Below, one piece after another: positions 5,970 to 8,892 of a stretch of DNA of 35,547 nt. Each line of letters opens with the position of its first letter. Position 1 is the stretch's first letter. The stretch is from Anaerolineales bacterium (lineage in GTDB: Bacteria; Chloroflexota; Anaerolineae; Anaerolineales; E44-bin32). The notes under the pieces are model-generated. The model had not been told where the DNA came from and did no database searches. It was given only the letters and a program-made list of their open reading frames with translations. Location of the stretch: NCBI GenBank assembly GCA_046259355.1, contig JBJYWH010000366.1, positions 1-35,547 of the forward strand. The letters are read 5' to 3'. A program made the translations under genes and the position numbers.

Positions 5970-7262
5970 CTAGCGCGCGGCCTCCAGCATGGTCGCGACC
6001 GCCTGGCGGGCGATCTGCACGGCGAAATTTGTGCCGCGATCCCAGGGATAAACCTGGCTCATGCTCGCGAACCACAGTCCGGGCACCGGAGTTTGCAGAT
6101 CGGGGATGGCTCGCGAGTGATCCACCGGCGGCACGGGCTGCGCGTAGGCGGTGCGGAACAGCCAGGATGCGCGCACCCAACCCGGATCGAACTCGGGATT
6201 AATGCGCTTCAGCGAGGGCAGGAATCGTTCAAGAAGTTCTTCTTTCGAGAGCGAAAAATATTCGTGGTCGGGATCGAGGTAGTCCCCCATGTATACGATG
6301 TGATCGCCGCCGAAGTGCTCCGGGGGGAGGAAGTTGGTGTGCTCGACCAGCGAGAGAAACGGAAAGCCGGCCGACTTGGGCAGGTTGTGCCAGTAGTACC
6401 CCTGTTTCGAGAGCTGCTCGCGAAGAGTGACGATCAGTACAACCGCGCCCATCGATTTCAAGGCCAGCAGCTGGGAGAGATACGATTCGGGCAGCGCCGG
6501 CGCCAGGCGGGCAAGCAGCCCCGGCGAGGTCGTCACCAGACAGGTGTCGAAGGCATGCTGCTCGCCCCCAACCGTGACCATCAGGCCACCTTCCGGACGC
6601 GGTGCGATCGCCTCAACCGCCGTATTCAATTTCAATTCAACCCCCAGCGTCTGAATGTGGGCAGCAAAATCATCCATGAAAGCCTGAAAACCTCCCACGA
6701 AGGTGCCCAGGCGCGGGGTGCGGGCTTTGAAGCGCGCCCAGAACCACGCCATGTTCACGTCCCTATAGTGTGGGCCGAATTTACCCACCAGCAGAGGCTC
6801 CCACAGGATTTCGTACGCACGATCGCCCACCCAGCGCCGCATCCACGCGTCAGCGGTAACATGCTCGAGCGGTTGCCAGCGGGCAATGTACTTCAAATAA
6901 GCGACGACCATTCCCAGCCGGATCCGATCGAGGAAGGGCAGGGCGGGAAAACGAAGTACAGCGAAAGCCGAATCGAGCGGGTAGAACTTCCCGGCGTGGA
7001 ATACGGCTGTCACCGGCCGGGGAAAGAGCACGTGGTCACGCCAACCCAGTTCGTCAATCAAGCCCAGTATGGCGTGATCCGACGCGAACCAATGGTGGTA
7101 GTACCGTTCCACGGACCAGTCCCAGCGCGAATCACGGAACCCGGCCGCAAGCCCGCCAACGTGATCGGAAGCTTCGAAGACGGTGACCTGGACCCCGGCC
7201 CGGATCAGGTCATACGCTGCGGCAAGCCCCCCGGCGCCGGCCCCGACGATAGCGGCTCTCAT
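5970..7262 (-). CDS. NAD(P)/FAD-dependent oxidoreductase (amine oxidase/protoporphyrinogen oxidase-like family)
   Basis: IVGAGAGG, EASDHVGG, ERYYHH and YPWDRGTN motifs. Start overlaps the upstream gene stop (ATGA). Confidence 0.85.
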   Translation of the reverse strand: MRAAIVGAGAGGLAAAYDLIRAGVQVTVFEASDHVGGLAAGFRDSRWDWSVERYYHHWFASDHAILGLIDELGWRDHVLFPRPVTAVFHAGKFYPLDSAFAVLRFPALPFLDRIRLGMVVAYLKYIARWQPLEHVTADAWMRRWVGDRAYEILWEPLLVGKFGPHYRDVNMAWFWARFKARTPRLGTFVGGFQAFMDDFAAHIQTLGVELKLNTAVEAIAPRPEGGLMVTVGGEQHAFDTCLVTTSPGLLARLAPALPESYLSQLLALKSMGAVVLIVTLREQLSKQGYYWHNLPKSAGFPFLSLVEHTNFLPPEHFGGDHIVYMGDYLDPDHEYFSLSKEELLERFLPSLKRINPEFDPGWVRASWLFRTAYAQPVPPVDHSRAIPDLQTPVPGLWFASMSQVYPWDRGTNFAVQIARQAVATMLEAAR

Positions 7263-8284
7263 GTCCCCTCCTCCTCTTCATGCGATCCCAGCTCCGCCTG
7301 CACAGCGTCCCAGCTCAAGCTCTCGCGTGCCATGTAATACATGCCCAGCAGGGTTATCGGCACCAGCAGGGCGGCATGCAGCACGAGCGTATAGCCCGCC
7401 GCGAGGGCGCTTGGAACGTGGTAGGCCTCCAACACAGCGATACCCGGTGCGTCGAAGGTTCCGATGTAACCCGGTGCCGAGGGGATCGTCGTCGCCAGGT
7501 TTACGATTCCATTCATCAACATCAACGCGAAGAAGCTGACCTCGAAATCGAACGCGTGCATCACGAACCAGTACTTGCCCGTTTCCAGCAGCCAGATCAC
7601 GACCGAGGTCACAAACACCATGCCGACATCGATCGGCGAGCGCAGGGATGCCAACCCATCCAGGAAACGATCGCTGAAACCGAGCAGCGCCGGTCGGAAT
7701 CGCCCCGGGATCAAGCGGTTGATGAGGATGTGCAGCAGGTTCTGCGCCTGGCGGGTGAAGATCGCCATCAACAGGAAAACCAGCACTGCACCCAGGAAGA
7801 TGCCGGCACCGATGAGAGAAAGTGCTCGAATGCTCCCGACGAATCCCGAGCCGGAGGTAAGGGAGGTCAGCTCGGGCAGGTTGAGAAAAACAAATCCGAG
7901 CATCACCACGCCATCGAAGACTCGTTCGACGATGATGGTTGCCAGCGAGGCGGAAATGGGGACCGCCTCTTTGCGGCGCAGGACATACGCCCGTAATAAT
8001 TCGCCTGCCCGCGCCGGGTAGATATTGTTGCCCATATAGCCAATGGTCACGATCGGGAACATGGTGCGGGTGGGAATCTTCTTCAGCGGTCGGAGCAGGT
8101 AATGCCAACGCCAGGCCCGTGCCCAGACCGCGACGAAGTAGACCATCACCCCCGGGATCAGCCAGCCGTAGCGGGCTCCCTGCAGGGCATCCCATACTTC
8201 CTCCAGCTGCAGGCCGCGCAGCGCCACCCACAGGAAGACTGCACTGATGATCAAGCCGAGCCAGAATTGCCAGCGTCGCAGCAT
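7259..8284 (-). CDS. Lysylphosphatidylglycerol synthase TM-region (UPF0104) flippase-like membrane protein
   Basis: RAWRW, NNIYPARAGE, ERVFD and PSAPGYIGTF motifs with multiple TM helices. Likely start MLRRWQ at 8284. Confidence 0.85.
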   Translation of the reverse strand: MLRRWQFWLGLIISAVFLWVALRGLQLEEVWDALQGARYGWLIPGVMVYFVAVWARAWRWHYLLRPLKKIPTRTMFPIVTIGYMGNNIYPARAGELLRAYVLRRKEAVPISASLATIIVERVFDGVVMLGFVFLNLPELTSLTSGSGFVGSIRALSLIGAGIFLGAVLVFLLMAIFTRQAQNLLHILINRLIPGRFRPALLGFSDRFLDGLASLRSPIDVGMVFVTSVVIWLLETGKYWFVMHAFDFEVSFFALMLMNGIVNLATTIPSAPGYIGTFDAPGIAVLEAYHVPSALAAGYTLVLHAALLVPITLLGMYYMARESLSWDAVQAELGSHEEEEGT

Positions 8285-8446: not shown

Positions 8447-8692
8447 CTAAATCGGCCGGACAGCCTCCGGGAGCATGCCATCCAGAATGCGTTCGAGCGC
8501 CATGGTGTGACTACAGACGTTGCGCGTCAGGAAGAAATCGCAGTCACAGCGCCAGGTGCCATCAATATATTCAACCGTGTGGGGATTGTTTTCGCCATCG
8601 AAGGTCGCGCGGAATTGCTCGAAAACGATGCGCTCGCGCTCCTCCGCATAGCGCTTGGCTTTTTCGATCTTGCCGATCATTCCATAATCCAT
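8447..8692 (-). CDS. Small SWIM-type zinc finger protein
   Basis: CDCDFFLTRNVCSH matches CxC-xn-CxH; strong RBS TAAGGAGG. Confidence 0.85.
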   Translation of the reverse strand: MDYGMIGKIEKAKRYAEERERIVFEQFRATFDGENNPHTVEYIDGTWRCDCDFFLTRNVCSHTMALERILDGMLPEAVRPI

Positions 8693-8715
8693 TGCGCCTC
8701 CTTATGTGTATGGTG

Positions 8716-8755
8716 AAACAAAAAGGCACGTGGGTTCACGCGCGCCCAAGTGCCT
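8716..8755 (-). terminator. Intrinsic terminator-like hairpin within the 5' leader of the SWIM gene
   Basis: Minus strand reads AGGCAC-T-TGGG...CCCA-C-GTGCCT followed by TTTTTGTTT. Confidence 0.75.
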
Positions 8756-8795
8756 GATCCGAGTCAATACCTCGATGTGATGAAAATCCGCTCAT
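8736..8795 (-). CDS. Candidate 19-aa leader peptide (uORF) MSGFSSHRGIDSDQALGRA
   Basis: ATG at 8795 preceded by GGGAGA; TGA at 8738-8736 lies in the terminator hairpin loop. Translation not proven. Confidence 0.35.
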   Translation of the reverse strand: MSGFSSHRGIDSDQALGRA

Positions 8796-8826
8796 AGCGG
8801 TTTTCTCCCGGGAATATGGTGAGCTA

Positions 8827-8855
8827 AGTATAGAACCTGGCCCGACGCGAGTCAA
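8827..8855 (-). promoter_or_regulatory. Sigma70-type promoter for the SWIM gene leader
   Basis: TTGACT (8855-8850), 17 bp spacer, TATACT (8832-8827). Confidence 0.75.
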
Positions 8856-8892
8856 TGCACGCTTGTACTACTATCGCCATACGGCAGCCCGT

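Follow-up and report, generated by a model that had tools for sequence, protein, structure and literature searches.

The order of promoter, upstream open reading frame (uORF), intrinsic terminator and gene is familiar from the trp/ilvB1-type and whiB7/wblC uORF attenuators, and it recurs in the leader that we describe here in front of a small SWIM zinc-finger gene of Chloroflexota. The whiB7 mechanism relies on an antiterminator together with stall-induced read-through. In the growth-rate attenuator of Escherichia coli ampC, ribosomes that load onto a short leader are believed to keep the terminator from acting, which ties expression to translation capacity; this leader uses a start-stop mini-frame, whereas approximately 10-14 codons of elongation are conserved in the SWIM leader. 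The ilvB1-type leaders also use an antiterminator and stall-induced read-through (excerpt of PMC13236596); no antiterminator was found in the SWIM leader. For E. coli pyrBI, it is described that the leader reading frame pyrL overlaps the intrinsic terminator and that tight coupling prevents the hairpin from forming (excerpts of PMC5021804 and PMC4824070). No antiterminator helix is needed there, which is also the case for the steric action that we infer for the SWIM leader. However, the UTP-sensitive tract of pyrBI is unmatched, as there is no conserved U-run (T runs of at least four in 15 of 79 uORF-to-stem stretches, T content 22%). The reading frame is also much shorter and comes in Shine-Dalgarno (SD)-led and leaderless forms, and the downstream gene encodes a SWIM protein and not a pyrimidine enzyme. 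Because the U-tract and pyrimidine-gene features fail, we do not file the SWIM leader as a member of the pyrBI type. A further likeness exists to a uORF attenuator of Sinorhizobium DUF1127, likewise a small gene of unclear function, whose uORF is proposed to monitor ribosome availability (excerpt of PMC12218461). In that case translation promotes attenuation via C-rich codons, as the same excerpt states, whereas the SWIM uORF runs onto an intrinsic hairpin.

The window analysed here is the whole stretch of 35,547 nucleotides of contig JBJYWH010000366.1 from an Anaerolineales bacterium (GCA_046259355.1). All parts of the leader lie on its minus strand:

8856..8883 (-), possible upstream regulator box, degenerate here and clearer in relatives as CGTA(G/T)G repeats with an 11-nt period; putative function
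8850..8855 (-), sigma70-type -35 element TTGACT, by sequence match
8827..8832 (-), sigma70-type -10 element TATACT, with a predicted transcription start near 8821-8819
8804..8809 (-), Shine-Dalgarno sequence GGGAGA of the uORF
8782..8805 (-), hairpin with the uORF ATG in its loop, which recurs in SD-led relatives without a fixed register
8736..8795 (-), uORF of 19 codons (MSGFSSHRGIDSDQALGRA), with its ATG at 8795, 42 nt upstream of the terminator core, and TGA at 8738-8736
8725..8754 (-), predicted hairpin of an intrinsic terminator, in which the outer pairs covary and the CAC/GUG core is near-invariant
8716..8729 (-), 3' arm and U-tract (GTGCCTTTTTGTTT), matching the pause consensus with G 8729, U 8720 and G 8719, where the polymerase may pause
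8697..8703 (-), AAGGAGG, a strong ribosome-binding site in front of the SWIM gene
8447..8692 (-), stand-alone SWIM zinc-finger protein of 81 aa with CxC-x8-CxH, mostly single-copy in Chloroflexota

A sequence-only reading had proposed the promoter, the hairpin with the ATG in its loop, the 19-codon uORF with its GGGAGA site, the GC-rich and U-tailed hairpin with the uORF stop in its loop, and the strong ribosome-binding site just upstream of the CxC...CxH protein, and at this locus these parts were recovered in place. The promoter (TTGACT-17 nt-TATACT) agrees with the consensus at 10 of 12 positions and ranks first of three sites between 7000 and 10500, where shuffled sequences give 1.0. The folding energies are -10.3 kcal/mol (z -1.8) for the ATG-loop hairpin and -16.7 kcal/mol (z -2.2) for the terminator-like hairpin including the U-tract TTTTTGTTT (8724-8716), within which a terminated 3' end is predicted near 8718-8716. 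In the nascent RNA of this genome, 8812-8807 can also pair with part of the upper 5' arm. Contigs from one RNA run (share 0.11) do not extend over the leader. With a z of -2.7 for the whole leader, the single-locus folds pass chance modestly (z -1.8 to -2.7), and it is the comparative data that carry the strong evidence.

For this comparison, relatives, which are Chloroflexota, were collected from 599 candidate stretches, 518 of which encoded a relative of the SWIM protein; the best 80 were kept, and 60 more loci were drawn from 150 listed matches. A promoter is detectable within 330 nt in 122 of 141 loci, and a promoter together with an anchorable terminator in 118. After dereplication, the terminator core of 74 of 100 leaders is preceded by a suitable start, located at 38-48 nt if SD-led and at 38-58 nt if a leaderless ATG, compared with 12.4 +/- 3.2 in shuffles (200 shuffles, maximum 23). 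The data had already been seen when the distance windows and the -16 threshold were set, and related leaders are not independent. No uORF qualified in 21 of the 100. Using slightly wider windows and three hand-corrected starts, we kept 79 uORFs, of which 64 are SD-led and 15 leaderless, with a median distance from start to core of 41 and 51 nt, respectively. On a quick tree, the two modes of initiation were exchanged seven times, and at least two of these switches are forced by strong branches. Beyond the Anaerolineae the pattern is weaker, as 24 of 40 loci have a detectable promoter, 23 a terminator and ten a qualifying uORF. Of 61 genomes of the order, 42 contain a match to a covariance model of the element, and the 29 highest-ranking matches outside this genome all precede a SWIM gene. 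Within this genome there is one strong match and no second one below E 0.3. A search of this genome for leaders of the same layout returned 16 strong promoter-plus-terminator sites, among which the 42-nt uORF geometry occurs at this one only. Across the relatives, the layout is kept and the terminator covaries.

Several loci show peculiarities of their own. Five long leaders (L110, L121, L131, L133, L135) have no promoter within 330 nt, and in L110, L131, L133 and L135 a terminator-like hairpin precedes the SWIM start by about 250-290 nt. In the genome of the window, promoter-plus-terminator leaders also stand before genes resembling dihydroorotase, ABC-F and DEAD-box helicase genes (contigs C247, C346 and C21 of G000), labels that were assigned by eye from the first residues. 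At one locus (L021:60-131), a group II intron (RF00029, E 2e-08) has its 3' end 26 nt before the SWIM start, where the terminator U-tract ends in close relatives, and the contig stops short of the leader. Introns of class IIC are inserted directly behind terminator hairpins. Just upstream of the -35 element, direct CGTA(G/T)G repeats with an 11-nt period were seen at loci including L016, L018, L046, L058 and L087-L099; they are inverted in one family, and TTAAG takes their place in others. These repeats resemble a response-regulator box, and no regulon for such a box was evident in this genome.

The uORFs themselves appear to be selected for where they begin and where they end. In all 79, no stop codon interrupts the frame until 16 nt remain to the core, compared with 54 in shuffles (maximum 64) and with 48 and 64 in the other frames, and in 47 the stop falls within the last 16 nt (shuffles 12). 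The conserved part of the peptide is confined to M-[R/S/K]-x-[V/F]: codon 2 encodes R, S or K in 67 of 79 uORFs compared with 32% in 701 ordinary genes, and valine stands at codon 3 or 4 in 41 of 79 compared with 9.6%. The dinucleotide GT is counted 24 and 26 times at the in-frame positions +6 and +9 and four and three times at the off-frame positions +7 and +8, and all four valine codons occur. This suggests codon-level selection on the start of the uORF, in a sample where shared descent may inflate the bias. In E. coli, the processivity of early elongation is set by codons 3-5 (excerpt of PMC6920384).

Besides the open frame, the terminator hairpin is the second conserved part of the leader. 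Across the alignment, 82 cells are changed on both sides of the stem compared with 23.8 in shuffled data, which beats all slid controls, and the RNAalifold consensus keeps this hairpin alone. A fixed, conserved ATG-loop helix was rejected, as its best pair exceeds expectation by 0.13 and it is absent from the RNAalifold consensus. The ATG hairpin has a mean energy of -7.4 kcal/mol compared with -2.9 at the SWIM start (mean z -0.54), and it is impossible in the 15 leaderless versions. The pause consensus reads G-10, Y-1, G+1. Among leader terminators, 45 of 73 have it in register (37 of 77 if the anchor is cruder) versus 8 of 124 ordinary ones, and 41 of 77 versus 27 of 124 have it in any register. 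The TTNTTT motif is not enriched in leader terminators (40 of 77 versus 62 of 124). No NusG was detected in the assembly, which is 87.7% complete, but five of five relatives have one, with VRNTPGVT common to four sequences, a motif that we take to be of the pro-pausing type. Pro-pausing NusG is supported in Mycobacterium only in the excerpt of PMC10990936, and may be relevant to the present leader.

Whether a ribosome could influence such a hairpin depends on how closely it follows the polymerase. It is known from E. coli that the trailing ribosome silences a terminator a few bases past a stop codon almost completely and that uncoupling abolishes this repression (excerpt of PMC4824070), and the ribosome is described to reach up to 12 nt past the stop (excerpt of PMC4833913). 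A short distance between stop and terminator has been used as a proxy for uncoupled transcription (excerpt of PMC7858274). Of the 182 ordinary terminators predicted in this genome, 20 follow a stop at 12 nt or less, and the distances peak at 20-29 nt (78 of 182), in a census built from home-made gene and terminator calls for one genome. Because ordinary terminators avoid the short spacing, the host looks coupled by this genomic proxy. In contrast to these 20 of 182, the stop lies at most 12 nt before, inside or beyond the stem in all 79 uORFs.

The comparison of sequences thus shows a predicted promoter, a start at fixed distance, a frame open to the stem, a covarying hairpin with a U-tract and no alternative pairing, an arrangement that occurs once per genome and precedes the SWIM gene. 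The leader probably attenuates sterically, much as pyrBI does: a ribosome close behind the polymerase would keep the hairpin from forming, so that brisk translation lets the SWIM gene be read. The polymerase would reach the U-tract and wait there, and a ribosome that has initiated at the uORF would have to translate about 9-10 codons to reach the stem. If it is close behind the polymerase, it would cover the 5' arm and permit read-through into the SWIM gene; if it is late or absent, the hairpin would close and a transcript of about 100 nt would be released. The outcome would be a race whose length is set by the spacing of 42 nt in SD-led and about 51 nt in leaderless leaders. More tentatively, the signal may be the general translation capacity, comprising initiation and early elongation through the R/S/K and V/F codons, rather than a nucleotide or a metal. 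The direction of the response is one that we infer from the geometry only. Regarding the earlier suggestion that the element senses translation or metal, an involvement of translation is favoured by the uORF geometry, whereas the consensus fold contains no conserved aptamer structure that would speak for metal.

The steric attenuator incompletely explains why the CAC/GUG pairs of the core are near-invariant (72, 71 and 73 of 75), while neighbouring pairs covary, and few ordinary terminators of this genome (7 of 182) begin with a core of this kind. This leads to the first alternative, an autoregulation in which termination would be shifted when the SWIM protein, possibly in dimeric form, attaches to the conserved stem or to the nascent leader; the ribosome on the uORF would then provide a co-input. 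That the element was found before the SWIM gene only would fit such a loop, and so would an invariant basic helix of the protein (K8, K11, Y15 and R21). C49, C51, C60 and H62 of the CxC...CxH motif are likewise invariant in the 94 aligned sequences, in agreement with the SWIM zinc finger PF04434. This protein scores below the Pfam cut-off for PF04434 (17.4 versus 19.6 bits, E 0.003), 60 of 94 homologues match it weakly at E<=0.01, and 20-74% of the members of the Atlas clusters are labelled SWIM. In contrast to PF04434, the family described here is stand-alone, has 76-100 aa and an N-terminal helix of its own, and includes no solved relative by sequence. The monomer is predicted with confidence (pLDDT 88), yet neither sequence nor Foldseek searches yielded a significant match in the PDB, and the best VIA-align hit of the monomer reached Z 2.9. 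Tandem two-domain versions exist (P0121-P0130, P0155), and the model of P0121 is compact (pTM 0.82). Judging from these fusions alone, the single-domain protein may dimerise. The top structural rows of the tandem-fusion model are the SWIM proteins ZSWIM8 (Z 4.8, rmsd 3.0, 69 aligned) and Shu2 (Z 4.1), and the absence of any RNA-binding fold among these matches weakens the case for autoregulation. Moreover, the pause register partly accounts for the first G of GUG, and binding alone leaves the fixed uORF geometry unexplained, which is why we regard autoregulation as unlikely. As further variants of the protein, two SWIM repeats are fused to a Swt1-like HEPN domain in P0131 (E 1e-05, slightly under cut-off), and P0247 joins the SWIM protein to a long coiled-coil-like region.

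A second alternative retains the steric mechanism with the opposite logic: the ribosome would normally clear the uORF or arrive too late, and a stall at late codons or at the stop, caused by a shortage of release factor or by an antibiotic, would keep the terminator open, so that translation stress induces the gene. The stops do cluster at positions from which a stalled ribosome would reach over the stem (of 79, 47 lie at most 12 nt before it and 20 inside), and small uORF-controlled genes that are induced by translation inhibitors exist (excerpt of PMC12218461). However, the 79 uORFs share neither late codons nor stop identity, their frame relative to the stem is free (31/16/32), and 12 of them extend past the terminator. 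As the ribosome would still have to arrive before the hairpin closes, we consider a late stall quite improbable.

It is very unlikely that promoter and terminator delimit a separate gene for a small RNA or a small peptide, with the SWIM gene fed by a constant leak. A strong promoter with its own terminator and the biased first four codons are what such a gene would present, but the peptide is unconserved past codon 4 and varies in length from 7 to over 30 aa, and the spacer is unstructured (mean -1.5 kcal/mol). The element is also tied to the SWIM gene while the neighbours vary, and the genome otherwise avoids the short stop-to-stem spacing. There is similarly very little to recommend a classical attenuator of the trp/ilv or whiB7 type, in which an antiterminator helix would be released by a stall at early codons, e.g. 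Val or Arg. The in-frame valine bias could be read in this sense and the ATG hairpin could serve as an anti-antiterminator, but whether or not a ribosome was masked, the 5' arm paired no more often than in shuffles (28, 38 and 39 of 79 for three ribosome positions), and the consensus fold holds no antiterminator. Instead of runs of regulatory codons there is a single Val/Phe bias at codons 3-4, and a ribosome at the stop would sit on the terminator itself, opposite to the arrangement in ilvB1 (excerpt of PMC13236596). A metal- or metabolite-binding riboswitch is hardly credible, since a terminator between promoter and gene and a product predicted to bind zinc are set against a consensus fold in which RNAalifold keeps the terminator as the sole conserved structure, without aptamer or other upstream structure, against leaderless versions in which the variable sequence ahead of the stem spans only about 40-55 nt, and against an Rfam search without a match in the window at gathering threshold or E<=10 or in 15 related loci. 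A riboswitch, which the sequence-only reading had named alongside attenuators for this layout, is consequently not supported, while the view in that reading that the leader is not recognised as a named RNA family agrees with the Rfam result.

Concerning its distribution, a match to the SWIM gene is present in 235 of 301 Chloroflexota genomes, mostly as a single copy. Six families gave no match for this query (0/4, 0/13, 0/12, 0/6, 0/9 and 0/4), which points to lineages in which the gene may be lost or too diverged. Among 140 loci the gene neighbourhood offered no clue to SWIM function: an LPG-synthase-like gene lies downstream in 48, and the remaining neighbours vary. In the window, a gene with an LPG-synthase transmembrane domain follows the SWIM gene on the same strand at 7259-8284 (-). 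Such an LPG-synthase-like gene may be co-transcribed with the SWIM gene and hence be under the control of the leader.

Taken as a pyrBI-like steric attenuator, the element appears to be a real, conserved and ribosome-gated attenuator dedicated to the SWIM gene of Chloroflexota that is apparently undescribed. The proposal of an uncharacterised cis-regulatory element is supported, with the conserved promoter-uORF-terminator layout, the covarying terminator and the missing Rfam match. In the literature searched, no description of the leader or the protein was found; it may be listed as a predicted attenuator in the supplement of PMC5314783 or in subscription papers. A bolder version, which we put forward as a doubtful possibility, is a phylum-wide, dedicated coupling gauge: by means of a pause of its own and the nascent peptide M-[R/S/K]-x-V/F, the leader would sense whether a ribosome catches RNA polymerase within about 42 nt and would control a dimeric SWIM protein that acts as an unrecognised translation or transcription factor of Chloroflexota and feeds back on the invariant CAC/GUG stem.

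For the near-universal, single-copy Chloroflexota protein flagged here, the level likely tracks the state of translation, which offers a first handle on its role. Coupling of transcription and translation in Chloroflexota is apparently unexamined in the literature found, and the leader would report on it naturally and with minimal means. Since its geometry is kept while SD-led and leaderless initiation are swapped, the kinetics of both would be directly testable.
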